Assembly (NCBI GenBank): GCA_963790345.1
Contig: CAWBOD010000011.1
Location: 227,681-291,680 of the forward strand
Length of the DNA: 64,000 bases
Source of the DNA: an uncultured Acidimicrobiia bacterium
Lineage (GTDB): Bacteria; Actinomycetota; Acidimicrobiia; Spongiisociales; ZC4RG35
Direction of reading: 5' to 3'
Shown: positions 2,179-41,470 of the stretch, one piece after another
Layout of the letters: each line of letters begins with the position of its first letter
Position numbering within the stretch: position 1 is the stretch's first letter
The notes under the pieces: model-generated
Told to the model about the DNA's origin: nothing
Database searches by the model: none
Seen by the model: only the letters and a program-made list of their open reading frames with translations
Made by a program: the position numbers and the translations under genes

Positions 2179-3324
2179 TTGCCATACCATCGCCCGATGA
2201 GGCGTTGGCTCCTGATCGTTACCACCTTCGGTCTTCTCACTTCCTGCACCTCGTCGCCCGCCCTCCCCCCGCTCCTGGTCGTCACCGACGACCATGCGGT
2301 GAATGCGATTTCGACCGAGGGGGAAACGGTCGAGCTGGTAGCGGCCGAACCCGGTCGTCTGGTGTCCCAGGCGACCTGGGGGCCCGATGGCCGGCTAGCG
2401 GTTTGGACCGAAACGAACACTTCGGACGGCCTGGCGGTGATCGCGATGGGTGACTCGCAGGGACAGCGAAGGATCGACGGTGGTACGGCTCCGTTCTTCT
2501 ATGCCTGGAGCCCCCAGGGCACACACGTCGCCTATCTGGGCAATTCCCCGGATGGCTTTGGAGTGGCGATGGGATTGGTCGACGTCACGGCCGGCACCGC
2601 CCGCATCGTCGACCAGGGGGCGCCGTACTACCTCGATTGGGCGCCGGACGGATCTCGTCTCGCGATCCATGTCGATGCGACCTTCTTCGGCTTCGTCGAC
2701 CTGGAGGGCAATCGGACCGCCCTGACCGGTGTGGCGGGCCTGTTTCAGGCACCCCAATATCTCGACGACGGCCGGCTGCTGGTCGCCACCGGCGGAGACC
2801 AGCGGGGAGTGGCCGTGTCAGAGGAGTCGGGCGAACCGGTCTTGATCGCTCCGACCACCGGGGGCACCTTTTTCTCCGCCTCGCCAAAGGGTGATTTGCT
2901 CGCATACACCGACACCGACGACGCGCCGATCCTCGGGGCCCTGTCTGTCGTTCCCCTCGAGGGAGGCGAGTCGCAGACAGTGAGCGAGGAAGGTGTGGTG
3001 GCCTTCGAGTGGTCGCCATCAGGCGAACAGCTCCTCTTCATGACCGTGAACGCCGAAGGCACGGCCGTCATCCCCCAGATTTGGGAGGCGGGCTCGGTGG
3101 ACACCTATCAGGAGCTCCTCCCGACCCGGGAGATGATCGGCAACTACCTCCCCTTCTGGGATCAATACAGCCGGGTCCTGACCCTGTGGGCACCAGACGG
3201 CGCCAGCTTCGTGCTTCCGGTGGACGGGGAAAATGGTGGCAGCATCGTGGTCTACGACGTCGAGACTGGCGACACGAACCGGGTCTCCGGAGGACGCTTC
3301 GCCAGCTGGGCTCCCGGTTCCTAG
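2179..3324 (+). CDS. PD40/TolB-like beta-propeller lipoprotein
   Basis: Lipobox-like N-terminus (MRRWLLIVTTFGLLTSC). Repeated WSPxG/WAPDG blades (YAWSPQGTHVAYL, LDWAPDGSRLAIH, FEWSPSGEQLLF, LWAPDGASFV). Confidence 0.75.
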   Translation: MPYHRPMRRWLLIVTTFGLLTSCTSSPALPPLLVVTDDHAVNAISTEGETVELVAAEPGRLVSQATWGPDGRLAVWTETNTSDGLAVIAMGDSQGQRRIDGGTAPFFYAWSPQGTHVAYLGNSPDGFGVAMGLVDVTAGTARIVDQGAPYYLDWAPDGSRLAIHVDATFFGFVDLEGNRTALTGVAGLFQAPQYLDDGRLLVATGGDQRGVAVSEESGEPVLIAPTTGGTFFSASPKGDLLAYTDTDDAPILGALSVVPLEGGESQTVSEEGVVAFEWSPSGEQLLFMTVNAEGTAVIPQIWEAGSVDTYQELLPTREMIGNYLPFWDQYSRVLTLWAPDGASFVLPVDGENGGSIVVYDVETGDTNRVSGGRFASWAPGS

Positions 3325-3353
3325 CGAACAACCCTTCCGTTAGGGTCCCGGGG

Positions 3354-5337
3354 GTGTCCGCCACCATCACGCCTGAAGTCCTCTGGACCCTGCCGCGGGT
3401 GGGAGCGCCTGTTCCGGCCGGCCGCGGCCGCGTCGTGGTCCCGGTGACCACCTACGACATCGCCGCCAACAAGGGAAGCGGCCGCATCTGGCTGATCGAA
3501 CAAGATGGATCCAGGCGACCTCTGACCGCTCCGGACTTCAACGCTTCGAAGCCCACCGTGCATCCGACCGATTCGAAACTGGCCTTCATCGCCTCGATCG
3601 GTGACGAGAAGGTCAAGCAGGTCTTCGTCTCGGACCTCGATCACGAAGCCCATCCCGATTCGACCAAAGCCTCGACTTCCTTCCCGCTCGGCGCGCTCGG
3701 GGGGCCGCTGGCTTCTCGACGGCCACGCGCTGGTGGTGCTGGCGTATCTGTTCAAAGGACACCTCGATCTCGAAGCCACGGGCGAGGAGATGGTCCGTCG
3801 CCAGGACGCCAAATTCGTCTCTCACACAACCGAAGATCTCATCTATAGATATTGGGACACGTGGCTGACCACCGGTGAAGTCCCCCACCTCTTCCGGGTG
3901 GATCTGGAGTCGAGCGGCGTCGTCGACCTGACTCCCCGGTCGACCCGATGGTGGAGCTGGCCGAGCACAGATGACCCCATCGACAGCCTGACGATCTCCC
4001 CCGATGGACGTCACCTCTGTTACGTCGCCGACTCCTCGGAGCCACCCCATCGGAGAATCAGGCGACACCTGTACGAGATCGACCTGGAGACCGGGCACGA
4101 ATCCGACGTGACCCCCGACGGTGTCGTCCAGGTCCATCGCCCCCGATACTCACAGGACAGCCAGAGCATCGTCTACGGCTTCCAGATCGTTCCCGACTAC
4201 TACGGAGACCCGGTGAGGTTGGGTAGGTTCGATCGCGACAGCGACGAACATCGAAAACTGGCCGAGGGATGGGATCGATCGGCCGATCAATGGGAGTTCG
4301 ACGGCCGCGGTGATCTGCTCATCGTTGCCGAAGAGGCCGGCTATTCCCATCTGTTTCGCCTGACTTGGATGGACCCGCAGCCGCAACCGATTGCTCTCGG
4401 CGGGAGTTTGGGTTCTCCCGCCGTGGATACTGACGGAACGGTCTATCTCCTTCGTCACAGCCTGCGGGAGCCGCCTGAGGTAGTCAGGCTCGGCGCCGAT
4501 GGCGTGCTGGAGCCGTTGACCGATTTCGCCGCAAGCCTTCTCGACGGCATCAGTTGGGGACCGGTAGAAGACCTCACCTTCCTGGGAGCGGACGAGGACC
4601 CGGTGCAGATGTTCCTGATTCATCCACCGGAGCCGACCGAGGAATCGGGAGGCGGACCGCCCCCGTTGTTGCATCTCATTCACGGTGGACCCCATGGAGC
4701 CTTCATCGACGGATGGCAGTGGCGCTGGCACGCCCAAAGCTTCGCTGCCCGGGGATTCCTGGTGGCCATGGTCAACTTCCACGGCTCCACCTCTTTCGGC
4801 TCGTCGTTCACTTCCTCGATCCAGGGAGCATGGGGAGACAAGCCCTATCGGGATATCGAGGCGGCGACTGACCTGCTCGTCGGTCGTGGCCTGGTCGACG
4901 AGGCCAGAATGGGGCTCGCCGGCGGGTCGTACGGGGGGTATCTGGTGGCGTTCATTACCGGTCAGACCAGCCGGTACTCGTGTGCTGTCGCCCACGCCGC
5001 CGTCACCAACCTGGGCGGCATGTATGCATCGGATATCACAGGGGGTCGGGCCCTGGCTTACGGAGCAGAGATATTCGAGGACCGCGCCAGGGTCGAGCGA
5101 TACAGCCCTTCCTCCCATGCCGTCGGGTATTCCACCCCGACCCTGGTCATCCATGGGGAGAGGGACTACCGGGTGCCGACGACCCAAGGCCTCGAGCTCT
5201 ATGGCGTTTTGAAGGCCAAAGACGTCCCGGCCCGGCTGGTTGTTTACCCCTCCGAGAACCACTGGATTCTCAACCCTCAACCATCACTTCACTGGTACGA
5301 CGAAGTGTTCTCATGGCTCGACGTCTACTTGAGGTAG
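3354..5337 (+). pseudogene. S9 family serine peptidase (prolyl oligopeptidase/acylaminoacyl peptidase type), one frameshift
   Basis: The N-terminal propeller (GTG 3354, VSATITPEVLWTLPRV...FPLGALGG) is in frame 3. It continues in frame 1 as RWLLDGHALVVLA... through GGSYGGY and a C-terminal His region. The switch falls at a G6 run, 3700..3705. Confidence 0.85.
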
Positions 5338-6537: not shown

Positions 6538-7506
6538 GAGGAATAGACCTCGGGGTTGACGCACCACTGGAGTGGGCGACCCTCGAGGCCTGCCGCCAAA
6601 TTCTCCACCGCTCTGGTGGCCATGGCCAGCCGGGTCCGCACGCTGGCGGACCCGATGTGCGGTATCACGATGCAATTGGGCATCGATACCAGCGGGTGAT
6701 CGGCGGGTATGGGCTCCGGATCGGTGACATCGAGAGCGGCGCGGCCCATCCGCCCGGAAGCAAGGGCACTGGCCAGGGCGTCGTGATCCACCAGGCCACC
6801 ACGGGCGATATTCACCAATGTGGCCCCGGGCTTCATCGCGTTGAGGGCGGCCTCGTCGATGAGGCGCCGGGTCGAAGGGTTGAGTGACGCGCTCGAGAAT
6901 GACGTGGTCCGACTCGGCGAGGAGTTCCCCCACCTCCCGGTAACCGATCTTCAACTCGGACTCGAGAGAGGCTTTGCGACTGGGTCCGGAGTACAACATC
7001 CGGACTCCAAAGCCAGCGAGGCGGCGCGCAATCGCTTCACCGATCCTTCCCAGACCGATGATCCCAACGGTGGAGCCGTGAAGGTCCTCGCCCGTGAGGA
7101 GGTCAAGGCTCCACTGCCTCCAGTGCCCGCCCCGAACCAGATCCTGGCCCTCCGGAATCCGCCGGAGGCTGGCGAGGAGAAGCGCCATGGCGGTATCGGC
7201 GGTGGTCTCGGTCAGGACATCCGGGGTGTGTCCCACGGGGATTCGCCGGGCGGTGCAAGATGCAACATCGATGTTGTCGACTCCCACCGCCATTTGGGAG
7301 ACCACGCGCAAACGCGGGGCCGAGTCCAGGAGCACCGCGTCGACCTGATCGATCAGCATGCATAGGAGTCCCTCTGCCTCCCCCAACTCCTCGAGTAGCG
7401 AAAGGCGCTCGGCCGGATCGGGTCCAGGGAACTCGAACGCAGGGCCTGGCGGGTAGAGGGATCGGGCCGCTTCCGGCAATCCCCCAGTCACTACGAACCT
7501 GGCCAC
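6534..7506 (-). pseudogene. D-isomer-specific 2-hydroxyacid dehydrogenase (glyoxylate/hydroxypyruvate reductase-like), one frameshift
   Basis: N-terminal part (MARFVV...GIIGLGRIGEAIARRL...ESDHVIL) is in one frame. C-terminal part (SASLNPSTRRLIDEAALNAMKPGATLVNIARGGLVD...PHIGSAS) is in another. Junction near 6890..6897. The rest of the 731-aa ORF is antisense noise. Confidence 0.85.
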
Positions 7507-7564
7507 CGAGCAACCCTAGGTGCCTCTTCGGAGGATTTTCGAGTTCACGGCTAGTTTGAGGGGA

Positions 7565-8394
7565 ATGCCTCGAATCCGGTTCGCCGTGACCACAGGCCCC
7601 CGGGCCCGGCTCATCTTCTTCGGCGTGATCGCCGCGACCCTTCTGAGCGCTTGTGATGCGGCGTCGACCGCCAAGGCGATGTCCCGGACGACGACGTCCA
7701 CCGCCTCTAGACCACGACCACGACCACGGAATATCAATCACCCGTCATGTCCGTGACAAGTACCACCCTCGTCACGGCCGAGTCGTTGTCAGCCGGTTCC
7801 TCGCTCATCGGACAGGCAAAGGCGAACGTGGAGATCTACGAATGGCCGGGGGTAACGGCCCCTTCCCGGATTCTCGAGGCAGCCACTCTCCTGGGCTCAC
7901 CCCGCGTGTTCCTGGTGGAAACGGGACCCATTGATGGCTGGGTCGAAGTGGCCCTTCCCATCAGACCGAATGGGTCCACGGGGTGGGCGAGGGCGGGCGA
8001 CCTGGAGCTCAAGGTGGTCGATCACGCGATCGTCGTCGACTTGTCCGCGCGGTGGCTGCGCCTCGAACAGGGTGATGAGATCGTGCTGGAAACGGAGGTG
8101 GCAGTCGGGTCGCCCCATAACCCGACCCCGGTCGGCAACTATTTCGTGACCGATGTCGTGGAGCTCGCCGACCCCACCGGCCCCTGGGGTCCCTTCGCTC
8201 TAGGGCTCTCCGCCTTCTCCGACACCATCACCGAATTCAACGGTGGCGACGGTGTCATCGGAATCCATGGCACCAACCGCCCCGCCAGCATCGGGGAACC
8301 CGTCTCGCTTGGGTGCGTGAGAGTCCCCAATGATGTTGCCGTCCGTCTGGCCGACCTCGTGAAACTGGGGACGCCCGTAGAGATCAGGGCCTGA
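7565..8394 (+). pseudogene. L,D-transpeptidase (YkuD domain) lipoprotein, one frameshift
   Basis: Signal/lipobox (LIFFGVIAATLLSAC) and a Thr-rich linker are in frame 2. The catalytic part in frame 1 ends with IGIHGT...SLGCVRV. Frames switch near 7705..7712. Confidence 0.75.
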
Positions 8395-14288: not shown

Positions 14289-14368
14289 TACGTTTGCCGC
14301 GCTGCGAACGGGGCCATTGCTCCTCCAGATTTCAGCGGACGGCTCTCTCTTGACGGAGCATACCGATG

Positions 14369-15514
14369 TCAGCTGTGCTGTATCCAAGGGACTCGAGGAG
14401 CTGGCTCACCTCGGTTGCCGATGAGACAGGGTCGGGTGATGTCGATCCAGGAGGAATCGACAGCCGGCGTTAGGGAGAATCGGGGGGCGGGAGCGGGCTG
14501 AGGGATGCCGTCGATGTCGACGAACGTCTCTCTGGCCAACAGGTGGTCGTCGATGAGCGATTCGGAGAGTGACCAGACCGGTGAAACGCAGGCATCGGTC
14601 CCCGCGAACCGCTCTACCCATTCTCCCCGGGTGCGGCTGGCGAATTCGGCCTCGAACCGCGCCGTCATAGCGGCCCAGCCCTTGCGGTCGTATTGATCGC
14701 CGACTTCGGCAGCAGCGAGATCGAGGCCCTTCAGCAGTTCGGCGAAGAACTGCGGCTCGAGAGCGCCCACCGCTACGAAGCCGCCTTCGCGGGTGCCGTA
14801 GGTGCGATAGAACGGGGCCGCGCCGTCGAGCAGATTCGATTGGCGTCCATCCACCCAGCTTCCGGAAGCAAGCAGTCCTCGCAAGGCGGCGGCCAACAGG
14901 GCAGATCCGTCGACCATGGCCGCATCCACCACCTGGCCTTCCCCGGAACTTCGGGCGTGGTTGAGCGCGGCCAGAACCCCCACCAACAAGAGCATCGCCC
15001 CTCCGCCGTAGTCGGCCACCAGGTTCAGAGGGGGATAAGGGCGATCGGCCGGTCCGATCGCGGAAAGGTTTCCAGATACCGCCAGATAGTTGATGTCGTG
15101 TCCAGCCGTCGCCGCCAAGGGTCCCGCCTGACCCCAACCGGTCATGCGACCGTATACGAGGGCCGGGTTGCGGGCGTGACACTCCTCCGGTCCCAGTCCG
15201 AGCCGTTCGACCACTCCGGGCCGGTGACCTTCGATCAGAATGTCGGCGGAGGTTGCCAGGCGCAGAACCACCTCGACTCCGGTCGGCTGTTTGAGATCGA
15301 CGACGATGGACCTCTTCCCTCGCGTTGTGGGATCGGAACCAGTCATCTCCGCGATGAGCCCGGGTTCGGGTCGATCGACCCGGACAACGTCGGCTCCGAG
15401 GTCGGCCAGGACCATGCCGGCAAACGGCACCGGGCCGATCCCCGCCAATTCCACCACCTTGACTCCATCGAGTGGCCCCCCGCGTCGTGAAGTGTCGTGA
15501 TTCGCAGTGACCAT
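14369..15514 (-). CDS. CoA-transferase family III protein (alpha-methylacyl-CoA racemase-like)
   Basis: GPLDGVKVVELAGIGPVPFAGMVLADLGADVVRVDRP N-terminus typical of the CaiB/BaiF family. Start taken as ATG 15514. Confidence 0.85.
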   Translation of the reverse strand: MVTANHDTSRRGGPLDGVKVVELAGIGPVPFAGMVLADLGADVVRVDRPEPGLIAEMTGSDPTTRGKRSIVVDLKQPTGVEVVLRLATSADILIEGHRPGVVERLGLGPEECHARNPALVYGRMTGWGQAGPLAATAGHDINYLAVSGNLSAIGPADRPYPPLNLVADYGGGAMLLLVGVLAALNHARSSGEGQVVDAAMVDGSALLAAALRGLLASGSWVDGRQSNLLDGAAPFYRTYGTREGGFVAVGALEPQFFAELLKGLDLAAAEVGDQYDRKGWAAMTARFEAEFASRTRGEWVERFAGTDACVSPVWSLSESLIDDHLLARETFVDIDGIPQPAPAPRFSLTPAVDSSWIDITRPCLIGNRGEPAPRVPWIQHS

Positions 15515-15599: not shown

Positions 15600-16231
15600 A
15601 TGAGCAACAAAGGAATCGTCGTCACCGCGACCGGCGTCGCCTCGGGACCCCCAGACCGGGCCGTGCTGACGCTGGGCGCCAACGCGGTACGCGGCAGATG
15701 CGGCAACGGCACTCGCAGCCGCCAACAGCAGTATCGAGAAGCTCATTTCAACACTGGCCGGCCTCGGCATCCAAGGTCCCGACATCCAGACATCTGACTT
15801 GTGGATCCACCCCGAGCACAACCACGAGGGTTCGTCGGCCGGCTTTCGGGTGAGGAACACGGTGCGAGTCACAACGACGGCACTGGACGGTCTGGGAGAG
15901 CTCATCAGCGCAGCCACTGCGGTCCTGGGAGACCTCACCGAAATCCATGGCCTCACCTTCGAGGTCTCCGATCCGGCTCCCCTGGAAGCCCAAGGCGCGG
16001 GTTCGAGCCTGGGCGCGGGCCCATGACAAAGCACGACAACTCGCCGACCTGGCCGGCGCCCGTCTCGGCAAGGCGGTCGAGGTGCGGGAAACCAGCCGTT
16101 ACGACCAGGGACCGATGTACATGGACCTCGCCAGTCCCAAAGGTGTTCCCATCGAAACCGGAGCGGCCTTGGTGGAGGTCCATCTCCAGGTCCGGTTTGC
16201 CCAGTTCCCGGACGACAACACTTCCGGATGA
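15600..16231 (+). pseudogene. SIMPL/DUF541 family protein, two frameshifts
   Basis: Three consecutive frames read GIVVTATGVASGPPDRAVLTLGANAV / ADAATALAAANSSIEKL...FRVRNTVRVTT...EVSDPAPLEAQ / ARVRAWARAHDKARQLADLAGARLG. Switches near 15688..15695 and 15990..15998. Confidence 0.75.
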
Positions 16232-17713
16232 CGCGCCAGAGCGGCGTTCTCGCCCACATCACATCGCTCCCGGGACCACATGGAGTTGGCACGTTGGGTG
16301 AAGAGGCTCGAGAGTTCGCCCGGGCTCTCGCCGACGCCGGCCAAAAACTGTGGCAGGTGCTGCCGGTCGGACCGACCGGTTATCGGGACTCGCCCTATCA
16401 ATCGCCCTCGACTTTTGCCGGGAACCCGTTGTTGATCGACCTGAACGACCTCGTGGTCGATGGACTCTTGCACGGTCCCGAGATAACCCAACTCGATGCC
16501 CTCCCTCGTCATTGGGTCGAATTTCGGGGAGTTGATCCCGGACAAGTCCAGGTTGCTGGTCCTGGCGGCCCGGCGGTTCCTCCGTCGGGGGGGCGACAAC
16601 GAATACGATGGTTTTCGGAAGACACCCTGGCTTGACTCGTATGCGACGTATGCAGCCATCAAGCAGTCATACGGAGGACGTTCGTGGGTGGAGTGGGACC
16701 ACGGCCTGGCCATGAGGGATCCCATCGCCCTGGCCCGCGCCTCGGCCCGCTTGGAAGGGTCGGATCGAAGTCGAGCGGGCGATTCAATACCTGTTTCATC
16801 GACAGTGGGAAAGGCTCATCGATCACGCCCACTCGTTGGGGGTGTCATTGATCGGGGACCTTCCGATATTCGTGGCTCACGACTCGGCCGATGTCTGGTC
16901 GCGGCCCGACCTCTTCCATCTGAGTGGCGACGGCCGTCCGACGGTGGTCGCCGGCGTGCCTCCCGACTATTTCGCCGCGACCGGGCAGCGATGGGGCAAT
17001 CCGTTGTACGACTGGGAGGCCCACCGCTCGGAGTCCTACCAATGGTGGGCCGACCGACTCCGGGCCACCTTTGCACGGTTCGATATGGTGAGGATCGACC
17101 ACTTCCGCGGCTTCGTTTCTTTCTGGGAGATCCCCGCTCACGAACCCACCGCCGTGAACGGCCGCTGGGTGAAGGGTCCGGGACTCGAATTGTTCACGGC
17201 CCTGGAATCGAGGATCGGATCGATGGCGATCATCGCCGAGGACCTTGGCATCATCACCGACGAGGTCACCGATCTGCGTCGCTTGCTCGGCTTCCCCGGA
17301 ATGAGGGTCGCCCAGTTCGGCTTCGATGAGGAGAGCAACACTGCCATTCATCACCCCTCCAATTACCCACCCGATGTCGTCGCCTATACCGGTACCCACG
17401 ACAACGACACAACCGTCGGATGGTTCTGGGGAGCCGATCAGCGCCACGATCGGCGCCGTCTCAATCGCAATCGGCGGCGACTGCTGGCTCTGGCAGGATC
17501 GCGAGGCCAGGACATCAACTGGGACCTGATCAGGATTGTTTTTGAGTCGGCAGCGGATACCGCGGTGGTGCCGGTGCAGGACCTTCTCGGCCTCGGCAGC
17601 GAGGCCCGGATGAATACCCCGGGGCGGGAGGAGGGCAACTGGATCTGGCGGATGACGAACCGGTTGAGCCCGGAACTATCGGAGCGACTCCAGCAGATGA
17701 CCGCTCGACCTGA
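16228..17713 (+). pseudogene. malQ: 4-alpha-glucanotransferase (amylomaltase), at least two frameshifts, 3' end unresolved
   Basis: SGVLAHITSLPGPHGVGTLG start. Frame switches near 16524..16529 and 16757..16761. Downstream motifs are GDLPIFVAHDSADVW, RIDHFRGF and YTGTHDNDT, ending ...EEGNWIWRM. The current frame has no stop until 18236, so another indel is implied. Confidence 0.85.
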
Positions 17714-26915: not shown

Positions 26916-27889
26916 GTCAACACCTCGGCTGCCCAGCGAAGACGCCGGAGAAGCTCCGCCGAGGTATCGCGGTCGGCTGCGAATTGCTCTACCAATGTGG
27001 GGTCGGGCTCGGGTCGTCGTAGCTCCATCTCGCCGTCGATCGGGAGCAGTGAATCCAGCACCACGTCCCCGGTGAAAAGGGAAACGGTGCCAAGACCACA
27101 GGCGAAATCCAGCTGGGGCAGGGCCGCCGCCGCCGCCAGGCCGGCGGCAATCCCGATCGACGTCTCGAGGGCCGATGAAACCACCGCGGGAAGACCGGAA
27201 CGCTGCGCCAGCCCGAGGGCCCGCTCCACGCCCCCCAATGGCTGAACCTTGAGAACGATGACATCGGCCGCTCCCCTCTCGGCAACCTCGAGAGGATCGG
27301 CCGCCAACCGCACCGCCTCATCTGCGGCAATTCGAACGGGCACCCGACGACGGAGCTCGATCATGTCCTCCAGGGTCCGCACGGGCTGTTCAGCGTATTC
27401 GAGGTCATAGTTGGCCAGCCGGAGCAGCATCTGTGTGGCCGTATCGAGATCCCAAGCTCCGTTCACATCGATTCGAATCTTGCCGGTCGGACCTAGGGCT
27501 TGCCGCACCGCGGCGAGCCGCTCCTCGTCTTCCTCCGGACTCTGACCGGGATCGGCCACTTTTACCTTGGCGGTGCGGCATCCGGATCCAGTGACGATCG
27601 AGTAGGCGGTGGGGCCGTCGACGGCCGGAACTGTCACGTTGATCGGCACCTTCGCTCGCACGGGCGCGGGCCAGGTGGAACAGGCTGCCTCCAGCGCCGC
27701 GGCCAGCCATCTGGTCGTCACCTCCGGCGGATAGTCGGGAAACGGCGAGAACTCGCCCCAGCCCTCCGGGCCCCTGATGAGGACCGCGTCGCGGCGCTCG
27801 ACGCGGCGAAACCGATATTTCATAGGGATGGAGACCGGATGCAACTCGAGGGCCTCGAGAACCGCGCCCGAAGCGGAGATGGCCGTCAT
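26912..27889 (-). CDS. menC: o-succinylbenzoate synthase (enolase superfamily)
   Basis: 325 aa. GWGEFSPF, KVKV, RIDVNGAWD and YAEQP motifs. Adjacent to menD. Confidence 0.85.
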   Translation of the reverse strand: MTAISASGAVLEALELHPVSIPMKYRFRRVERRDAVLIRGPEGWGEFSPFPDYPPEVTTRWLAAALEAACSTWPAPVRAKVPINVTVPAVDGPTAYSIVTGSGCRTAKVKVADPGQSPEEDEERLAAVRQALGPTGKIRIDVNGAWDLDTATQMLLRLANYDLEYAEQPVRTLEDMIELRRRVPVRIAADEAVRLAADPLEVAERGAADVIVLKVQPLGGVERALGLAQRSGLPAVVSSALETSIGIAAGLAAAAALPQLDFACGLGTVSLFTGDVVLDSLLPIDGEMELRRPEPDPTLVEQFAADRDTSAELLRRLRWAAEVLT

Positions 27890-28200
27890 CCGGTGCCGTC
27901 CGACCGCTGTTGGGTCCTCAAGTATTCCACCACTCGGGCGATTTGATCATCACTGAGTGTGGAGTCGAAGGAAGGCATGCGGCCCCTGCCGCGATCGATG
28001 GTCAGAACCAGGAATTCATCGTCTTGTTCGGCGGCGTTTGATCCTGCCCCCAGCGCCGGCCCAATTCCGCCGCCAAGGTCGTCACCATGACAATTGGCAC
28101 AGACCTGTTGATATATCTCCTGGCCCGTCGCGCTCGCCGGCGGAGGCCCGGCGCAGGCGGCCAGAGCCAAGACCAAGAAGGCGACTAGTGATCTGAACAT
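27886..28200 (-). CDS. membrane-anchored/lipoprotein c-type cytochrome
   Basis: ATG 28200 (MFRSLVAFLVLALAAC...). CANCH heme-binding motif and a downstream Met (GRMPSF). Confidence 0.8.
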   Translation of the reverse strand: MFRSLVAFLVLALAACAGPPPASATGQEIYQQVCANCHGDDLGGGIGPALGAGSNAAEQDDEFLVLTIDRGRGRMPSFDSTLSDDQIARVVEYLRTQQRSDGTG

Positions 28201-29062: not shown

Positions 29063-29135
29063 CCACCCGCAGATCTAGGCACCCGCAGCTCTGGGTACTT
29101 CCCTCTAGGCACTTCCCTCTAGGCACTTCCCTGGG
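29063..29135. repeat. five degenerate 14-17 bp tandem units spanning the manC stop codon
   Basis: CACCCGCAGATCTAGG / CACCCGCAGCTCTGGG / TACTTCCCTCTAGG / CACTTCCCTCTAGG / CACTTCCCTGGGTCC. The manC stop (CTA 29119..29121) lies inside one unit. Confidence 0.75.
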
Positions 29136-30235
29136 TCCGGTCGCCGAGCCTCTCGACCAGGGTCTTGACATCTTGGGCCCGGTCCCGGGGAACAATCAAG
29201 ACTGCGTCGCGGGTGGCCACCACCACCAACCCTTCGACACCGATCGCCGCCACCAGCGGCCCTTCCGACCTCAGATAGTTGTCCGCCGCGTCGAGAGAGA
29301 TGACGTCGCCCACATTGACATTCCCCTGCTGGTCGTGCTCCCCCAATTCCCAAAGGCTCTCCCACGAGCCGACGTCGTTCCAAGAGGCGTCGAGCTCAAC
29401 CACAGCCGCACGGTCGGTTGGCTCCATCACTGCGACGTCGATCGAACTCGCAGGCGCGGATCCGAATTCGGGTCCCAGCTCGATTCGATCCGCCACCGAG
29501 ACGGACGATCGGAGTGACTCCTCAACGCGCGCCAACACCTCGGGGGCATAGCGGCTCAGCTCCTCGATGAGTACGCCCACGGGGAAGACGAACATCCCGC
29601 TGTTCCAGAGGGCCCCGCTCGCGATAAGTTCAGCCGCGACCGAAACACTGGGCTTTTCGACGAAACGTTGGACGCGGAGGGCACCGGGCCCCCCGCCAAT
29701 TGAAGCGCGGAGGGCCCCCGCCAATTGAAGTGCGAAGGGCACCGGTGGTCGATGGGCCTTCCAGGTCGGAGGGGGCAGGAACGATGTAGCCAAATCCGGT
29801 CTCGGGACGGGTGGGCACCACCCCGAAGGTCACGAGCCGACCCTGCCGGGCAGCCTCGACCGCGGAATCGAGGGCAAGATGGAACGCAGGTACGTTGGCG
29901 ATGTGGTGGTCCGCCGGCAAGACCAGGAGCACGTCGTCGGGGGATGCGGTCAACGCGGCCGCCGCAACTGCCGGGGCGGTATTGCGACCCACCGGCTCGC
30001 CGATGAGTAGGCGCGGAAGATCGGGTCGAATCTGGGCCGCAACCGCGTCGAGGGAGTTGACGTTCGCCACGATCACCATCCGACCATCGAGATGGTTGAC
30101 CCTCGCCAGGGTCGATTGCAGCATCGTCTCGGGTCCCAGCAGTGACTGAAGCTGCTTCGGGGTCGAAGGACGCGACAGCGGCCAGAGCCGCGTGCCCGCT
30201 CCCCCCGACAGAATGACCGGAATTGTCGACGCCAT
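29119..30235 (-). pseudogene. manC: mannose-1-phosphate guanylyltransferase, interrupted by a 58-nt tandem duplication
   Basis: MASTIPVILSGGAGTRLWPLSR and PADH are in the 5' ORF. RFVEKP and LWNSGMFVF are in the 3' ORF. The two ORFs differ by one frame and are separated by the duplicated segment 29673..29745. Confidence 0.85.
29673..29745. repeat. intragenic tandem duplication in manC (33 nt + 25 nt + partial copy)
   Basis: CGCGGAGGGCACCGGGCCCCCCGCCAATTGAAG (29673..29705), CGCGGAGGGCCCCCGCCAATTGAAG (29706..29730), TGCGAAGGGCACCGG (29731..29745). It encodes repeated GALRxSIGGGP. Confidence 0.85.
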
Positions 30236-30256
30236 GGACCGTTAGGGTACCGAGCC

Positions 30257-31450
30257 GTGCTGGACGTCTCCCCGTCCCCGTCTCCCTCACCCTCCGGCGG
30301 CGCGAACAGCCTCGTAGTCGTCCCCGTCCTCAACGAAGACCCGGATGTCGTCTTGAGCACGCTGCGGGCGGCGGCCTCCCATCCCGCCGTGGGGTTGGTT
30401 TTGGCCATCACCGGCGACCACGACGAGAGCAACCAGGGAATTCGGGCCATGGTCACCGAGCTGGGCCCAAGGGTGCAAGTGATGCCACAACAACGTCTCG
30501 GGAGCTTGCGGCCCGGCAAGGGTGATGCGATCAACACCGGATGGAAGGTGTTCCTGGAGGACGGTCGATTCCAGAGAATTCATTTCTACGACGCCGACAT
30601 CAAGACGTTCGGCACTGATTGGATCACCAAGGCAGAGGAGGCCCTCGATCTCGGCTTTCAGTCCGTCCGTCATTTCTATCCGAGAGCGGCGACCGACGCG
30701 ATGATCACGTGGATGGTGACCCGACTTGGCTTCGCCCTGCTCTGGCCGCGATCACAACTCCCCACTATCGAGCAACCACTCTCCGGTGAGCTGGCGTTCA
30801 GTCGGGCGGCTTCCGAAATCATCGCCGTCGATCCGCGCGTCAAGTCTCAGAGCGATTGGGGGATCGACACCGCGATTACTTTCGCGACCATTGCGCATGG
30901 TCAATCGATCTACTCGTCGTACATCGCGCGAGGGAAGGACCACGCCCTCTATTCGGTGTTGACGGACATCAAGGTCATGATGGTCGAGTGCCTCGGAGCT
31001 CTCCAGCGGTTACGTTCCGCCGTTGATCAGGACGACGCTCTCGACAAGCCAGTGGAGCGATTCAGCGAACCGGCCGATTCGGTTTCCCAACAGATCGCCC
31101 AGCAGATCGGTTTCGACATAGAAGCGACCCAGAGGCTATTGGCCGTGGGTTGGTCAACCAGACAGGACGCCCTGCTCAGTGCCCATTTTCCGGCGGGCGT
31201 CGCCGCCCGAGCGAGGCAATGGCGCGACTGGCCCGACACCTCGTGGATGGATGAACAGACGTGGTTGGAAACGCTTGCGATCCTGCTCGATGACTTTGTG
31301 CCGACCGACAACGATTGGGTCGACCTCGCCTTCCGTATGTGGGTGGGTCGCGTGCTCCACTACACGCTTCGGATCGCCGTCCGAGGTCACGCGTTCGCAG
31401 ACGCATATCTTCATCAAATGGTCGCGCGGGCGATCACTGCTGCGACTTGA
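30257..31450 (+). CDS. mgs: mannosylglycerate synthase (GT78-type, single-step GDP-mannose + glycerate)
   Basis: Long blocks match my recollection of the Rhodothermus marinus Mgs: LRPGKGDAINTG, RIHFYDADIKTFGTDWITKAEEA, ATDAMITWMVTRLGFALLWP, IEQPLSGEL, SDWGIDT, MMVEC. Divergent from manC. Confidence 0.8.
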   Translation: MLDVSPSPSPSPSGGANSLVVVPVLNEDPDVVLSTLRAAASHPAVGLVLAITGDHDESNQGIRAMVTELGPRVQVMPQQRLGSLRPGKGDAINTGWKVFLEDGRFQRIHFYDADIKTFGTDWITKAEEALDLGFQSVRHFYPRAATDAMITWMVTRLGFALLWPRSQLPTIEQPLSGELAFSRAASEIIAVDPRVKSQSDWGIDTAITFATIAHGQSIYSSYIARGKDHALYSVLTDIKVMMVECLGALQRLRSAVDQDDALDKPVERFSEPADSVSQQIAQQIGFDIEATQRLLAVGWSTRQDALLSAHFPAGVAARARQWRDWPDTSWMDEQTWLETLAILLDDFVPTDNDWVDLAFRMWVGRVLHYTLRIAVRGHAFADAYLHQMVARAITAAT

Positions 31451-31612: not shown

Positions 31613-31792
31613 ATGGCAACCAAGAAAGCGGCCAAGAAGGCTCCGGCCAAGAAGGCGGCGCCAAAGCGTGCCGCCAAAAAGGCTCCAGCCAAGAAGGCCG
31701 TAAAGAAGGCCGTCAAGAAGGCTCCAGCCAAGAAGGCCGTCAAGCGAGCCGTCAAGAAGGCCCCCGCCAAGAAGGCTGCGAAAAAGCGCTAG
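31613..31792 (+). CDS. small lysine/alanine-rich histone H1-like (AKKA/PAKKA repeat) basic protein
   Basis: AAGGAGG lies 5 nt before ATG 31613. The 59-aa product is MATKKAAKKAPAKKAAPKRAAKKAPAKKAVKK... The antisense ORF is a mirror artefact. Confidence 0.75.
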   Translation: MATKKAAKKAPAKKAAPKRAAKKAPAKKAVKKAVKKAPAKKAVKRAVKKAPAKKAAKKR

Positions 31793-31811: not shown

Positions 31812-31860
31812 AAACAAAGAGAAGCAGGACAGCCATCGGTTGTCCTGCTTCTCTTTGTTT
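31812..31860. terminator. perfect 20-bp stem hairpin downstream of the AKKA gene
   Basis: AAACAAAGAGAAGCAGGACA (31812..31831), 9-nt loop, TGTCCTGCTTCTCTTTGTTT (31841..31860). The right arm ends in a T-rich run. Confidence 0.7.
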
Positions 31861-32155
31861 AGGTCCGAGCTGAGCTGGTTCTCTTGTTTAGGTCCGAGCT
31901 GAGCCGCTTCTCTTGTTTAGGTCCGAGCTGAGCCGCTTCTCGTTCTTTAGGTCCGAGCTGAGCTGCTTCTCTTTTTAGGTCCGAGCTGAGCTGCTTCTCG
32001 TTCTTTAGGTCCGAGCTGAGCCGCTTCTCTTTCTTTAGGTCCGAGCTGAGCTGCTTCTCTTTCTTTAGGTCCGAGCTGAGCCGCTTCTCTTTCTTTAGGT
32101 CCGAGCTGAGCGCTTCTCTTTCTTTAGGTCCGAGCTGAGCGGCTTCTCTGTGTTT
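31861..32155. repeat. 10 x 28-30 bp head-to-tail tandem array
   Basis: AGGTCCGAGCTGAGC(C/T)GCTTCTC(T/G)TT(C)TTT units start at 31861, 31890, 31919, 31949, 31977, 32007, 32037, 32067, 32097 and 32126. There are no spacers. A degenerate 11th unit follows. Confidence 0.95.
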
Positions 32156-32196
32156 AGTTGCGAGCGGGAGCTCTGGTCGGTGTCCGCCGGGTGAAG

Positions 32197-33232: not shown

Positions 33233-34531
33233 CTAGTCGTGGCTCCCGATCGAAACGTAAGCACATTCGATGCAGACACGCCGGACCAGGCCGACCGATG
33301 AGCCCGACTCCTTGAAGGTGTGGACATGATCCTCTCTGAGCTTGGGCGGGCGTCGCAACTTGGCGAGCAATCCCGTGCTGGTCTCAGAAGGATGATGACC
33401 GTCCGGGGCAAACCGAACGTCGCCACCGTTCTCGACAGGGCCTTTCTTGGGCGCGGCGGCCGTGGTATCGACCTCTCGGCGTTCATCGCGAGCCTTCACC
33501 GCCGCCGCCGAGATGGGCTCGGGCACCCGTACCCGGCCGAGGTCATCGGCGTCCTTGGGTTGGGCGTCGGCCGTGATCTTCTTGCGGCGGGCCGCCAACG
33601 AAGTATCGGCTGGTGGGTCCGCCACGACCTCGGCCGAAGTGGCTCTTTCGTCAAGGGGCTGAACGACAGGAACGTCCAGTGACGCCACGGCTTTGATCGC
33701 TGCCACCTCTTCGACCTGGGTGAGGGTGGTCACCGGATCCTGGCCGTTTTTCGTTCTGCGGCCGCTACCTGAACCCTGCTTGGCGGGAGCTTTGGGTCGG
33801 GCCGACGCGGCTGGAGCCTTCTCGGCCGGAGCCTTCTCAGATGGAGTCGATTTCACCGGCTTTTCGCGCTTGACCGATGCCGCTCGGGGCGTTAGTTCTG
33901 GAGCGGTTGGTTCTGGGGCGATAAGTTCTGGAGCTGGGGATACCTCGGGGGCCGGCACCGCCTTTCGCTCCTTGCGCGTCTCCGAACGCAGTGCTGCTGG
34001 CGCCTCGGCGACTGGTGGCGGAGTTGCCGCGACGGCAGCGCGTTCGGGAGCCAGCGATTCGGCTGCTTTGGAGCCCGCCTGGCGTCGGCGGTTTCGGACC
34101 GTGTCGGAATCCGAAACGTGAAGCGGGCGCTCTACGGGGCTTACCGTCTCGAGGGGCCGCGACCCATCCTTGCGCCTCGCTGCGTCCTCGGCGGCCCGGC
34201 GATGACGGCGCTTCCTCTTCTGCGCCGCCAACCAGCCTTCTTGCATCGCGGTGACCCCTCCGTACGCGAACTGGAGGGCATCGTCGGCCAGAAACTCGAT
34301 TTCATCGTCGCCCAGGAAGAGAATGAACCTCTCGGCTATGTCCCGGGCGACCTCGACATCGGCCAGGTAGTAGCGCCCGATCAGTTCCGAGTCGCGTTTG
34401 ATCTCAAGGTGGTACTCGTCGATCTCGAGAACCACCCTGACGCCAGGGTCCCTGTCACCCGGGGTACGGACTGATCCTTTGAATTGCACGTTTGTCCTAA
34501 GGCCCCGGTCGCGCCCCTCAATTAGGAACAC
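33233..34531 (-). CDS. hypothetical protein (structured N-domain, long Pro/Ala/Glu/Lys-rich disordered linker, C-terminal CxxC tail)
   Basis: 432-aa ORF directly downstream of gcvP. N-terminal IGRYYLADVEVARDIAERFILFLGDDEIEFLADD; C-terminal HVHTFKESGSSVGLVRRVCIECAYVSIG. The start codon is uncertain. Confidence 0.5.
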   Translation of the reverse strand: MFLIEGRDRGLRTNVQFKGSVRTPGDRDPGVRVVLEIDEYHLEIKRDSELIGRYYLADVEVARDIAERFILFLGDDEIEFLADDALQFAYGGVTAMQEGWLAAQKRKRRHRRAAEDAARRKDGSRPLETVSPVERPLHVSDSDTVRNRRRQAGSKAAESLAPERAAVAATPPPVAEAPAALRSETRKERKAVPAPEVSPAPELIAPEPTAPELTPRAASVKREKPVKSTPSEKAPAEKAPAASARPKAPAKQGSGSGRRTKNGQDPVTTLTQVEEVAAIKAVASLDVPVVQPLDERATSAEVVADPPADTSLAARRKKITADAQPKDADDLGRVRVPEPISAAAVKARDERREVDTTAAAPKKGPVENGGDVRFAPDGHHPSETSTGLLAKLRRPPKLREDHVHTFKESGSSVGLVRRVCIECAYVSIGSHD

Positions 34532-37884: not shown

Positions 37885-38968
37885 TCAGACCGAGAAGCGG
37901 ATCACCAGCACGTCGTCGGGTTTGATCACGTAGGACTTTCCTTCGACCCGGACAATTCCCAAACGCTTTGCTTGATCCCAGCCGCCGGCCTCGATGACCT
38001 GGTCGATCGTCGAGACCTCGGCCCGTATGAATCCCCTCTCGAGGTCGGAGTGGATCTTTCCTGCTGCCTCAGGTGCGGCCGCCCCGGCCCGCACAGTCCA
38101 CGCCCGCGATTCCTTGGGACCGACTGTGTAGAACGAGAGCAACCCGAGACCTTGATATGCAGCGCGGACCATCAAGGACAGCGCGCCCTCACCAAGACCG
38201 AGGCCTTCGAAAAGTTCGGCTCGTTCGTCGGCAGACAGCTTCGCCCCTTCCTCCTCGAGGCGGGCCGAGACCGCGACTACAGGATCACCAGGGGGGAACC
38301 AGCCGTTGCAGACGCTCAACCACCTCGGATGTGTCCTCGGTGCCTTCGTCGAGATTCACGACCCACACCGCCGGCTTCAGCGTCAAGGGGCTGGAATCTC
38401 GGAATGCAGCAAGTGCCTCCTCCGACCATTCCCTGGTTCGAAGGGACGCCCCACCGGCTAGCACCTCGACTGCCTCGTTGATCACGTTGGCCGCTCCCCG
38501 TTTCGACGGATCGGAGTTGGCCTCCCGGTTGAGGCGGTCGGCCCGGCGGGCCAGCACTTCATGGTCTGCCAATGCCAGCTCGAGTAGCAGTTCCTCCGCC
38601 TGGGTCATCGGATCGATCCCCGTGTCCTCGCTGGTGACCGATGGATTCGAAAATGCTCGCAGAACGACCACGAGCGCATCCATCTCGCGCAATTGGCCGA
38701 GGAACCGGCCGCCGAGGCCGCCACCTTCGCGACCGGGAGGCGATAAGGCGGGAAGATCGAGCAGCTCGAGAGTGGCCGGAACGACCTTCACCGACTTCTC
38801 CACCAGGGCCGCCGCCTCCAACTTGGGATCGGGGATACGAGCCACACCCATGTTCGGTTCAGTCGTGTTGTAGGGGTGGGTCGCAGTGGCAGCTTCGAGG
38901 CCCGTGAGGGCGTTGAACAGTGTCGTCTTTCCGCTGTTGGTGAAACCAACGATCCCGAGCCGTGCCAT
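37885..38968 (-). pseudogene. ychF: ribosome-binding ATPase YchF, one frameshift
   Basis: MARLGIVGFTNSGKTTLFNALT (ATG 38968) ...ERLQRLVPP is in one frame. GDPVVAVSARLEEE...GKIHSDLERGFIRAEV...VIRFSV is in the next. The switch is at the G6 run 38291..38296. Confidence 0.9.
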
Positions 38969-39057: not shown

Positions 39058-40052
39058 ATGGATCACGTTGCGGTAATCGGTGCCGGCTCCTGGGGAACCG
39101 CGGTGGCGGCCCTGGCCGCCACCCACCAGCCGGTGGTCCTGTGGTCGCGCCGCCCCGAGTTGGCGGAGGTCATCAATGCGACTTCGGAGAATCCGGACTA
39201 CCTCCCCGGGTATCGCCTCCCCTATGGCGTGCGGGCCACCAGTGATCTGGACGAAGCCACCAGGGGGCCACCGTGGTGGCCATGGCGGTTCCTTCTCATG
39301 GATTTCGAGGGGTGATCGGTCGGATTTCGGGTCTCCCGGCCGAGCTCCCGATGGTTTCTCTCACCAAGGGAATCGAGGAGAGAACGCTGAGACGGATGAC
39401 AGAGGTCGTCGCCGATGTGATCCCCGATCACAACCCCGCAACGATCGGGGTGTTGACCGGACCGAATCTCGCCGGTGAGGTCATGGCGGGCCAGCCAACG
39501 GCCGCGGTGGTTGCGATCGTCGACGACGAGGCCGCGACGATCGTCCAACGAGCCTTGATGGGCCTCACCTTTCGCGTCTATACCAACCCTGACGTCGTCG
39601 GCTGTGAATTGGCAGGGTCGCTCAAGAACGTCATGGCAATCGCCGCCGGAATGTCAACCGGTCTTGGCTTCGGTGATAACACCCGGGCCGCCTTGCTGAC
39701 GCGGGCCCTCGCCGAGTTGACCCGACTCGGGAGTAGCGCTCGGCGGACAACCGGCAACCTTCGCCGGTCTGGCGGGCATGGGTGACCTGATCGCCACGTG
39801 CACGTCGGTCCAGAGCCGCAACTTTCGGGTCGGCATCGGCCTGGCTCAGGGACGCAAACTCGATGACATCATCGAAGAGATGAAAATGGTGGCCGAAGGC
39901 GTCAAGACCACAAGGGCCGTTTTAGAACTGGCCGCGGCGCCAACGTCGAGATGCCGATCGCGACCCAGGTGGCAAAGGTCCTGTACGAGGGGCATCACCC
40001 CCGGGACGCAGTGATGAGCCTGATGACCCGCCAGGCCAAATCCGAGAGCTAG
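39058..40052 (+). pseudogene. gpsA: NAD(P)H-dependent glycerol-3-phosphate dehydrogenase, three frameshifts
   Basis: [15 protein letters not shown] / [12 protein letters not shown]...LTKGIE...GPNLAGEV...GSLKNVMAIAAG / FAGLAGMGDLIATCTS...EGVKT / ANVEMPIATQVAKVLYEG. Switches at the G5 run 39263..39267 and near 39730 and 39938. Confidence 0.9.
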
Positions 40053-40529: not shown

Positions 40530-41470
40530 CGGAGCGACCTTAATGGTCCGGCGTCGACGATCAGCGCCGCCGAACCCGCAACGACTCGATACAGCAGTTC
40601 GCGATCGCCCAGAAGGTGGTGAAGCCTCCGTTCCAGTTGGCCCACCGGGTAGAGATTCTGAGGGGCGCGAGGGTCTTTGTGGGCTGCGCTGGCGTAACGA
40701 CACATGGTCGCGGCGGTGAGGTCGGCGATGCGGCGGGCCGAGGCAACGTCTTGATCGGCATTGACTTCTGCCCGAACGATGCCGTCCATCGGACCCGGCA
40801 TCCTTCAGTGGGAGCTTGAGATACCAGGAGAAGCGACTCCAGCTGGTCGTGGTCAGAAAAAGCGGGGTCCGATCTCCGGGTCCGAGCCTGCCCAGGATCG
40901 GACGCAGGTTCGGGAGGGAGATAGTGGACGTGCTGGGTCTTGATGTACCCGACTGCCCCGGGAACGTGCCGATGATGGGACAGAGGGCCGTCAACGACTA
41001 TCAGCGGGGCATCGGCGTGGGAGGCGACGATCGTTCCTTCGAATTCGCCCATTCGCTGTTGCAGGCCCAGCCAGAGATCTTCGGCGACGATGCCCCGGGT
41101 TTGATGGATGTCGTATTCGGCATGACGGGTGATGACCTGGCTTGCGGCCGCCGCCGACGGTGAAGATTCCCCGCCGAATCTCGTGGGCCACGATGCGAGC
41201 GCTGTGGTTGCAGAGCACTGCCCCGGCGCCATAGCTGGCGGCCAGGGCCAGCATGGGTGTCCCGTCCTCTTCCTCGATCCAGAGATTGGCGTCGACACGG
41301 CGCACGCCGTCGACAAAGAGCACCTCCTCGGCCGGTTTGGCATTGACGACGATCGGGGCCCACTTGGCTGCATCGACTTCGATGTCGACGACGGCCTCGG
41401 GTGCCTCGAGGTCTTCCTTGCCGCCCGGGCTTCCGTACTCAGGTGACCAGGGCTGCACCGTGAACTTCAT
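40526..41470 (-). pseudogene. nurA: NurA-like nuclease (putative), three frameshifts
   Basis: Four frames concatenate to ~315 aa: MKFTVQPW...VLFVDGVRRVD... / ...ADAPLIVVDGPLSHH...GYIKTQHVHYLPP / LRPILG...TPLFLTTTSWSRFSWYLKLPL / DGIVRAEV...KDPRAPQNLYPVGQLE... The two DG motifs, the size and the position after rad50/sbcC fit NurA. The call is from memory of motifs only. Confidence 0.5.

Follow-up and report, generated by a model that had tools for sequence, protein, structure and literature searches.

The window, the 64,000-nt stretch of DNA that was analysed, belongs to a genome of the class Acidimicrobiia, so the actinobacterium-like origin suspected in an earlier sequence-only reading is correct. 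It holds two divergent genes in close apposition (Table 1). The plus-strand gene, mgs, is the 397-aa open reading frame which that reading had described, and it is predicted to encode a bona fide single-step mannosylglycerate synthase (MGS) of family GT78, an ordinary addition to a family already known and annotated. Its minus-strand partner, manC, corresponds to a ManC/CpsB-type mannose-1-phosphate guanylyltransferase (TIGR01479) whose frame is interrupted in the assembly.

The GT78 reading is supported by Pfam domains, matches to solved structures and conserved residues. The mgs product matches the Pfam family MGS_GT (PF21969) with an E-value of 7.6e-84 (281 bits against a cut-off of 27), and MGS_C (PF21967), the MGS-specific helical C-terminal domain, with one of 1.8e-28 (99 bits against a cut-off of 27). 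In a phmmer search of the PDB, residues 18-391 align end to end with residues 2-373 of the Rhodothermus marinus MGS chain (2y4k/2bo4, E 5e-108), with an identity of 47.7% over 369 aligned residues, and MGS chains are the only matches at E <= 1. This similarity is far beyond chance. The sequence blocks that had been named as typical of the R. marinus enzyme can all be found in the HMMER alignment to it: LRPGKGDAINT, HFYDADIKTFGTDWITKAEEA, ATDAMITWMVTRLGFALLWP, IEQPLSGEL, SDWGIDT, and MMVEC.

The sequence-only reading had also placed manC head-to-head with mgs. The arrangement itself holds, with the manC ATG at 30235 on the minus strand and 21 nt between the two start codons (22 from start to start), but no continuous open reading frame covers 29119..30235. 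The gene is instead split between frames -1 and -2 into an N-terminal half of 201 aa (29630..30235) and a C-terminal half of 224 aa (29119..29793), a break that the sequence-only reading had not mentioned. The 5' part matches NTP_transferase (1.7e-26, profile positions 2-151) and TIGR01479 (positions 2-158), and is 91% identical to residues 1-168 of ManC from L001, the nearest long contig. The 3' part continues with NTP_transferase positions 155-244, ManC_GMP_beta-helix (5.6e-18) and TIGR01479 positions 164-347 of 467, and is 92.6% identical to residues 165-352 of the L001 protein. Both domains of the family are present across the two fragments, which together cover profile positions 2-347, but not in a single uninterrupted frame. 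Unlike the TIGR01479 family, this manC also lacks the C-terminal phosphomannose-isomerase cupin domain.

Table 1. Features of the manC/mgs locus, in window coordinates
Feature	Position	Strand	Description
14-bp tandem repeat over the manC stop codon	29089..29132		TRF, 3.1 copies; 28 nt longer than in L001 (blastn gaps)
manC 3' part	29119..29672	-	remaining nucleotidyltransferase domain and beta-helix domain; other frame
Extra nucleotides relative to L001	29673..29730	-	58 nt; DNA alignment to the intact 352-aa manC of L001
Unit B, CTTCAATTGGCGGGGGGCCCGGTGCCCTCCGCG	29705..29673	-	33 nt, G6 run; in frame with the C-terminal half
Unit A, CTTCAATTGGCGGGGGCCCTCCGCG	29730..29706	-	25 nt, G5 run
manC 5' part	29731..30235	-	N-terminal nucleotidyltransferase half; in frame with ATG 30235, frame continues to a stop at 29630
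Divergent intergenic region	30236..30256		21 nt
Intergenic core, GTTAGGGTACCG	30241..30252		12 nt, overlapping TANNNT hexamers
TAGGGT hexamer	30243..30248	+	8 nt from its own start codon
TACCCT hexamer	30249..30244	-	8 nt from its own start codon
mgs, single-step mannosylglycerate synthase, GT78	30257..31450	+	intact, 397 aa, GTG start; Pfam and PDB matches
mgs product, domains			Ser/Pro-rich N-terminal extension, 17 aa; GT-A catalytic domain, residues 18-250; helical MGS_C, residues 280-389

Conservation of the manC/mgs pair

MGS had been expected to be sparsely distributed among bacteria. This is true of the phylum, where it was found in three of 401 sampled Actinomycetota, all three from the same Acidimicrobiia family as the source genome, but not of the lineage, where 28 of 61 relatives and all six genomes of the genus carry it. 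At the level of the family, MGS is present in 23 of 37 genomes, against none of about 397 sampled from the remaining phylum. Metagenomic homologues number more than 700, many of them already named mannosylglycerate synthase.

A divergent manC adjoins mgs in all 13 fetched loci that group with the window (a 14-row clade, SH-aLRT 100%); in other Acidimicrobiia clades no manC was found next to mgs, within about 4 kb. The gene order in the clade is fixed as menF-menD-menC-(cyt c)-manC<>mgs-small ORF-2 hypotheticals-gcvP, and the synteny is maintained down to 52% MGS identity, which rules out a recent horizontal gain as an island. Its fixed chromosomal position in one clade marks the pair as a trait inherited within the lineage. 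It is standard in this clade, whose members are soil MAGs as judged by their isolate names, and its proteins are already named in databases. Orthologues annotated as 'mannosylglycerate synthase (domain-containing protein)' by JGI and NCBI, from Acidimicrobiia, Bipolaricaulota and other MAGs, have the same Pfam architecture, with identities to the mgs product of 52-94% inside the clade and 40-50% outside. Compared with them, mgs differs in nothing essential, and only its neighbour does, being a manC that carries a 25 + 33-nt repeat and is broken in frame. The Bipolaricaulota gene, unlike those of the manC-paired loci, sits after a sugar ABC-transporter operon.

The 21-nt region between the two genes is probably a bidirectional promoter, a candidate whose transcripts would carry little or no leader. 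Its core is identical in 11 of the 13 clade loci, while the remaining two keep TAGCGTA, which still reads TANNNT on both strands, and the core motif occurs only once in the genome. Neither gene of the pair is preceded by a Shine-Dalgarno sequence. A scan for sigma-70 consensus promoters found none, a negative that is uninformative for a high-GC actinobacterium.

The break in the manC frame

Relative to L001, manC contains 58 extra nucleotides and, since 58 mod 3 is 1, its frame shifts by +1. The extra nucleotides sit in a length-variable surface loop of ManC and consist of two tandem units, for which TRF reports a period of 25 and 2.0 copies. In the metagenome contig L131, which is closely related, an intact manC carries a single copy of unit B, in frame. 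Unit B is thus real, occurring in an independent intact allele, and only the 25-nt unit A, an extra partial repeat, breaks the frame. The double 25 + 33-nt unit is absent from public genome and metagenome contigs in exact scans in which the first G-run could hold 0-3 variable bases. A dispersed repeat family was rejected, as the genome contains neither unit outside its own site.

The break is cautiously attributed to an assembly or consensus error, in which case the true manC would be intact and simply have a longer loop. Deleting one G yields a ManC of full length whose loop carries an insert of 19 aa, and G5 and G6 runs inside a repeat, as here, are a setting in which consensus errors typically arise. 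The assembly is rich in frameshifts: genome-wide, the parts of 18 out of 47 orthologues lie in different frames, at least seven other genes are split within the window, the frameshift density elsewhere is about one per 2-3 kb, and CheckM completeness reaches only 60.9% despite 16 large contigs. Any apparent pseudogene in it therefore needs read-level confirmation. In addition, manC is intact in L001, L131, all five same-genus genomes and every member of the clade. The artefact reading is weakened, however, by the locally clean assembly, with no further frame-breaking indel in the ~16 kb around the locus, where the two coding indels relative to L001 measure 3 and 30 nt.

A real inactivating duplication in the manC of this strain also has a substantial chance of being correct, if somewhat short of even. 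The frame shift coincides exactly with the strain-specific 25-nt unit, and the further differences from L001 at the locus, of 28, 30, and about 250-270 nt, likewise come from tandem repeats that differ in length, so that repeat expansion looks like a real process here. Under this alternative, the module would be decaying in the strain: the tandem duplication would kill manC and with it the dedicated GDP-mannose supply of MGS, and mannosylglycerate synthesis would be gone or would depend on an unseen GDP-mannose source. A second ManC-type GDP-mannose pyrophosphorylase, or any other ManC homologue, was not found in the assembly, and the remaining NTP_transferases of the genome are GlgC-like, GalU-like, and a third taken to be GlmU-like solely because of its 466-aa open frame. 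Against decay, mgs is fully intact with all its catalytic residues, and the frequency of frameshifts elsewhere in the assembly counts against a real duplication in the first place.

Among strains more than 90% identical in ManC, the loop occurs without any unit, with one in-frame 33-nt unit, and with 33 + 25 nt out of frame. It is quite unlikely, nevertheless, that the loop is a true tandem-duplication hot spot whose changes could turn manC, and the supply of GDP-mannose and mannosylglycerate, on in some soil strains and off in others living alongside them, with a conserved 21-nt bidirectional leaderless promoter driving the gene pair and with mannosylglycerate serving the whole lineage of presumably mesophilic soil Acidimicrobiia as a solute against desiccation or osmotic stress.

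Active site and predicted product of MGS

The comparison with the R. marinus structure that had been proposed as a check of the GT78 reading found the DXD motif, the His ligand, and the GDP, mannose and glycerate contacts all retained. The metal ligands are D112-A-D114 and H229 (R. marinus D100, D102 and H217), and the GDP-mannose contacts are E27, Q78, K88, D112, D204, L175, W201 and M241 (R. marinus E11, Q66, K76, D100, D192, L163, W189 and M229). In the R. marinus enzyme, D100, D102 and H217 serve the metal, Glu11 the ribose and Gln66 the guanine, Lys76-Asp100-Asp192 form a network, Leu163, Trp189 and Met229 make up the sugar pocket, and Thr139 and the Ile138 main chain contact D-glycerate (PMC2581804). 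The glycerate contacts are likewise kept as T151, I150 (main chain in R. marinus) and R143. The last of these corresponds to Arg131, which is reportedly a D-glycerate contact in R. marinus (Flint et al. 2005).

The mgs product therefore has in common with R. marinus MGS (CAZy GT78; PDB 2BO4-2BO8, 2Y4J-2Y4M) the MGS_GT plus MGS_C architecture, the DAD motif, the His ligand, the guanine Gln, the ribose Glu, the Lys-Asp-Asp network, the Thr and Arg for D-glycerate, and the Leu/Trp/Met mannose pocket; Y220 of the R. marinus enzyme is also conserved. It differs in its 17-aa Ser/Pro-rich N-terminal extension and in the replacement of R218 by Ala (A230). The genetic context differs as well, since mgs lies head-to-head with manC in an apparently soil-dwelling host, whereas R. 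marinus is a marine thermophile. R. marinus carries both mannosylglycerate pathways, while the two-step MPGS pathway is not seen in the source genome.

The enzymatic product is predicted to be alpha-mannosylglycerate, a prediction only, because R. marinus MGS is reportedly promiscuous in vitro. This promiscuity favours a GT78 member with a different product, such as glucosylglycerate or another glycoside, or with mannosylglycerate serving as a primer in biosynthesis or a reserve of carbon rather than as a stress solute. In the same direction point the facts that R. marinus MGS also takes lactate and glycolate, that plant GT78 homologues produce mannosyl- and glucosylglycerate, and that red algae build up mannosylglycerate, but not in response to stress. 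The clade, moreover, consists of soil MAGs, presumably of mesophiles, whereas mannosylglycerate has been described chiefly from (hyper)thermophiles and red algae (PMC8490865). A different product or role is nonetheless unlikely, given that no substitution affects the guanine-binding Q78, the mannose-pocket residues L175, W201 and M241, or the glycerate-binding T151 and R143, and that the partner conserved and inherited together with mgs is a mannose-1-phosphate guanylyltransferase in particular.

Assignment to another glycosyltransferase family (GT81 GpgS/MpgS or a generic GT2), with a merely superficial likeness to MGS, can be dismissed: the weak NCBIfam match to glucosyl-3-phosphoglycerate synthase (NF010496, GT81 GpgS, E 1.2e-05), which would favour it, is expected from the GT-A fold common to GT78 and GT81 (PMC2581804) and reaches 24.5 bits, far under the cut-off of 262, while the MGS-specific C-terminal domain is present and the solved-structure matches are to R. 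marinus MGS only, not to GT81, a possibility that the sequence-only reading had considered. GT81 GpgS (Mycobacterium tuberculosis) and MpgS (Rubrobacter xylanophilus), as well as GT55 MPGS with the phosphatase MPGP of the two-step pathway, resemble the mgs product in their retaining GT-A fold, DXD motif and related end product; unlike MGS, they use 3-phosphoglycerate, need a phosphatase, and have no MGS_C domain. The GT55 model does not fit either, as Osmo_MPGsynth (PF09488) gave no match in the source genome in a search that recovered the positive control, Thermus thermophilus.

Proposed pathway and significance

In the proposed pathway, ManC would form GDP-mannose from mannose-1-phosphate and GTP, and MGS, a retaining enzyme, would transfer the mannose from GDP-mannose to the 2-OH of free D-glycerate, giving alpha-mannosylglycerate. 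By analogy with R. marinus MGS, catalysis would involve a divalent metal, with D114 and H229 as its ligands, and the K88-D112-D204 network. Both genes would be transcribed divergently from the conserved 21-nt region, probably as near-leaderless transcripts, and sharing this region would link the expression of MGS to that of its donor supply. The notion of a self-contained module does not stand, as the supply of D-glycerate and mannose-1-phosphate is encoded elsewhere and manC is frame-broken in the assembly. Neither an MGH1-like mannosylglycerate hydrolase nor a type-I phosphomannose isomerase was found in the source genome, although missing pathway genes are weak evidence in an assembly that is incomplete and frame-damaged. 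A literature search for mannosylglycerate in Acidimicrobiia returned no relevant paper and no characterised MGS from this class.

Taken as a whole, a one-step MGS route with a divergent manC/mgs pair, inherited in the lineage and with manC frame-broken in this assembly, is very likely the correct explanation of the locus. What is known of the MGS enzyme family is unchanged by it, since databases already name such proteins. For the organisms, single-step MGS emerges as a trait that is common, and passed on vertically, in an uncultured Acidimicrobiia family represented mostly by soil MAGs. The role of mannosylglycerate here may be osmotic, desiccation or thermal protection, and its distribution points to it as a candidate osmotic or desiccation protectant in presumably mesophilic soil bacteria. 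The same family is a source of MGS enzymes, presumably mesophilic, for biotechnological production in one step.

The mannosylglycerate synthase and its distribution

The 397-aa product of mgs, present in the ORF list as the sequence-only reading had claimed, matches both domains of the mannosylglycerate synthase (MGS) family in profile searches, namely MGS_GT (PF21969; residues 18-250, E 7.6e-84, 281 bits) and MGS_C (PF21967; residues 280-389, E 1.8e-28, 99 bits), each with a cut-off of 27 bits. Among all PDB chains, the only matches at E <= 1 are entries of the structurally characterised single-step enzyme from R. marinus (2BO4, 2Y4J-M), the best of which (E 5e-108) aligns over chain residues 2 to 373; global identity to this enzyme is 47.7%. 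The following functional residues of the R. marinus enzyme are all conserved in the alignment: the ribose contact E11 (here E27), the guanine contact Q66 (Q78), the ion-pair network K76, D100 and D192 (K88, D112, D204), the metal ligands D102 and H217 (D114, H229), the glycerate carboxylate contacts I138 and T139 (I150, T151), L163, with its carbonyl near the anomeric carbon (L175), the sugar pocket W189 and M229 (W201, M241), and Y220 near the phosphates (Y232), with roles as described in PMC2581804. Identity as a GT81 GpgS was rejected, the protein reaching only 24.5 bits where that model requires 262, and a search of the genome found no GT55 MPGS. Neither of the outcomes that the earlier reading had named as refuting it, best hits in another GT family or loss of the catalytic residues, was observed. 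Given these profile and structure matches, the conserved residues, the low GT81 score and the lack of a GT55 enzyme in the genome, the assignment to GT78 is secure. The gene, correctly identified by the earlier reading, is an unremarkable orthologue in an established enzyme family that the public annotation of sister MAGs already names.

The family had also been described as sparsely distributed. This holds for the phylum, where MGS_GT occurs in only 3 genomes of an even sample of 401 Actinomycetota, all from the same family as the window, but not for the lineage itself, where it is found in 28 of 61 related genomes (genus, 6/6; family, 23/37; other families of the order, 5/24). Such family-level prevalence in Acidimicrobiia, against near absence in the rest of the phylum, is mildly new. 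Wherever the relative is named, the closest mgs genes come exclusively from MAGs of uncultured Acidimicrobiia, most of them with soil-catalogue isolate names. Other phyla with mgs include Bipolaricaulota, Rhodothermota, Thermodesulfobacteriota (Desulfohalobiaceae), Planctomycetota and Sumerlaeota. Metagenomes hold more than 700 homologues, many named "mannosylglycerate synthase" by JGI; the NCBI name is "mannosylglycerate synthase domain-containing protein".

The divergent pair with manC

The start codons of manC and mgs are separated by 21 nt. A tblastn search of all fetched loci with ManC found an adjoining, divergent, single-frame manC in L001 (the nearest long related contig), L015-L022, L046 and L055, and the two genes are arranged in the same way in L128 and L129. 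When 84 MGS proteins are placed in a maximum-likelihood tree, the 13 manC-paired loci and the window form exactly one clade (100% SH-aLRT support); in the other large clades of Acidimicrobiia, no manC lies closer than about 4 kb to mgs. The order menF-menD-menC-(cytochrome c)-manC<>mgs-small ORF-two hypotheticals-gcvP is retained down to 52% MGS identity, which argues for vertical inheritance of the pair at a fixed chromosomal site. The context is wholly unlike this in Bipolaricaulota sp. J31 (L130), where mgs comes last, behind the genes of a sugar ABC transporter (SBP, two permeases and a MalK-like ATPase), and adjoins a GntR-SBP fusion.

Two small genes accompany the pair. The cytochrome c of the window, which is concealed within a spurious ORF of 408 aa, at its C-terminal end, is also found in L128 and L129, between menC and manC. 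Downstream of mgs, the gene for a basic protein is preceded by a strong AAGGAGG ribosome-binding site, and L001, L128 and L129 have a small ORF in the same position.

The core of the 21-nt intergenic region, GTTAGGGTACCG, is identical in 11 of the 13 clade loci, whose MGS identity is down to about 52-57%, and the two outliers keep TAGCGTA within it. All 13 carry a TANNNT hexamer on each strand, with a five-base overlap; in the window, 8 nt separate either hexamer from its start codon, and a Shine-Dalgarno sequence is missing from both genes. A genome-wide scan showed the motif to be unique, and a sigma-70 consensus scan of the intergenic region found no promoter. Actinobacterial promoters have a TANNNT -10 element and leaderless mRNAs are frequent. 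Together with the hexamers on both strands, these features suggest a compact bidirectional promoter, whose transcripts would have little or no leader. The clade-specific pairing and its conserved 12-nt bidirectional core are mildly new.

Features of the manC-mgs locus (window coordinates unless a contig is named)
Feature	Position	Strand	Size	Description
mgs	30257..31450	+	397 aa	GTG start
manC N-terminal ORF	29630..30235	-	201 aa	ATG at 30235; NTP_transferase positions 2-151, TIGR01479 positions 2-158
manC C-terminal ORF	29119..29793	-	224 aa	NTP_transferase positions 155-244 and ManC beta-helix; TIGR01479 positions 164-347 of 467
Unit A			25 nt	CTTCAATTGGCGGGGGCCCTCCGCG; window-specific
Unit B			33 nt	CTTCAATTGGCGGGGGGCCCGGTGCCCTCCGCG; also in L131
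Loop allele, L001	L001:5345-5600		352 aa	no unit
Loop allele, L131	L131:535-790		355 aa	one in-frame 33-nt unit and a 24-nt deletion
Loop allele, window	29673-29730			33 + 25 nt; frame-broken
Intergenic core	30241..30252		12 nt	GTTAGGGTACCG
Small cytochrome c	27886-28190	-		lipoprotein-like, CANCH motif; between menC and a DinB/MDMPI-like gene
Basic protein gene	31613-31792	+	59 aa	Lys/Ala/Pro-rich, AKKA/PAKKA repeats; histone-H1-tail-like
14-bp tandem repeat	29089-29132		3.1 copies	CTCTAGGCACTTCC; overlaps manC stop codon; 28 nt longer than in L001
Hairpin and 30-bp array	31812-32165		10.9 copies	long perfect hairpin after the basic protein gene, then directly the array (92% matches); about 250-270 nt longer than in L001; unit at no other site in the genome
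Uncharacterised protein	33233..34531	-	432 aa	at 33898, 30-nt in-frame tandem expansion (2 x 15 nt) vs L001, in a low-complexity linker

The frame break in manC

Proposed as a partner lying head-to-head with mgs, manC is indeed divergent and adjoining, but it is not one ORF, being read in two ORFs in different frames. Together they make up one ManC-type mannose-1-phosphate guanylyltransferase, interrupted near residue 170 and without the C-terminal isomerase domain. Alignment with the intact gene of L001, whose MGS is 94% identical to that of the window, reveals a single indel in manC, 58 extra nt that consist of two imperfect tandem units (A and B). The insertion falls in the loop that links the GYGYI strand to the RFVEKP motif and that varies naturally in length among clade members. 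In a JGI metagenome (P0121), contig L131 carries a closely related allele, which over the C-terminal half is 96% identical to that of the window; its manC is intact and has unit B once, in frame and with the same six Gs (...GVRRISIGGGPGALPVQRFVEKP...). Since unit B is tolerated there, it is real and harmless, and unit A alone causes the +1 shift; one G fewer in either G-run would yield a ManC of full length with 19 extra residues in the loop. Mildly new, too, is this repeat-prone loop, for which three alleles are seen in strains that share more than 90% ManC identity. Scans for the exact pattern of the 25 + 33-nt allele turned up no second copy.

An error of assembly or consensus is a moderately probable origin of the break. 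Relative to a same-genus short-read MAG, 18 of 47 orthologues are broken up into 2-4 frames; the window itself has at least seven further split genes (3200-5334, 6543-7584, 14309-14750, 15789-16275, 37888-38968, 39058-40046, 40565-41470); the completeness score of this 2.77-Mb MAG, in which the window is C11:227681-291680, is only 60.9% despite 16 large contigs; and manC is intact in all relatives examined. A genuine inactivating duplication is a serious possibility, if a little short of probable: no other gene is split across 21.9-37.8 kb of the window, and about 10 kb of coding sequence compared with L001 holds no other frame-breaking indel, the two coding indels being of 3 and 30 nt. Moreover, tandem-repeat length changes (+28 nt, +30 nt and about 250-270 nt) are the main strain difference from L001 at the locus.

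Genome-wide, frame-split genes occur on C1, C2, C4, C8, C14 and C15, with junctions mostly not at long homopolymers, and frameshifts have probably deflated the CheckM completeness. On C12 (around 39211-39939), a 684-aa open frame spans PlsY-like and GalU-like sequences and the N-terminus of MoeA, the rest of which lies in another frame; this fusion is probably a further assembly frame error. Given such pervasive frameshifts, apparent pseudogenes in this genome call for read-level checks.

Proposed pathway and role

By homology to the structurally characterised enzyme, ManC would form GDP-mannose from mannose-1-phosphate and GTP, and MGS would use D114 and H229 to bind GDP-mannose and a divalent metal. 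D-glycerate would be held by T151 and R143, the latter aligning with R. marinus R131, an acceptor contact. Mannose would then be transferred in one step, with retention and without a phosphorylated intermediate, giving 2-O-alpha-mannosyl-D-glycerate.

Contrary to what had been suggested, the module is not self-contained, the conserved block having no gene for the supply of D-glycerate or mannose-1-phosphate. The genome encodes two PGM/PMM-family proteins; no type-I phosphomannose isomerase, MGH1-like mannosylglycerate hydrolase or second ManC was found in it, absences that mean little in an incomplete, frame-damaged assembly. In the library searched, no paper connects mannosylglycerate with Acidimicrobiia. 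For R. marinus, a link between the single-step route and thermoadaptation has been reported (Borges et al. 2004, as cited in PMC8490865). Judging from other organisms, the most plausible role of MGS in the apparent soil habitat of this lineage would be to protect cells from osmotic stress or drying.
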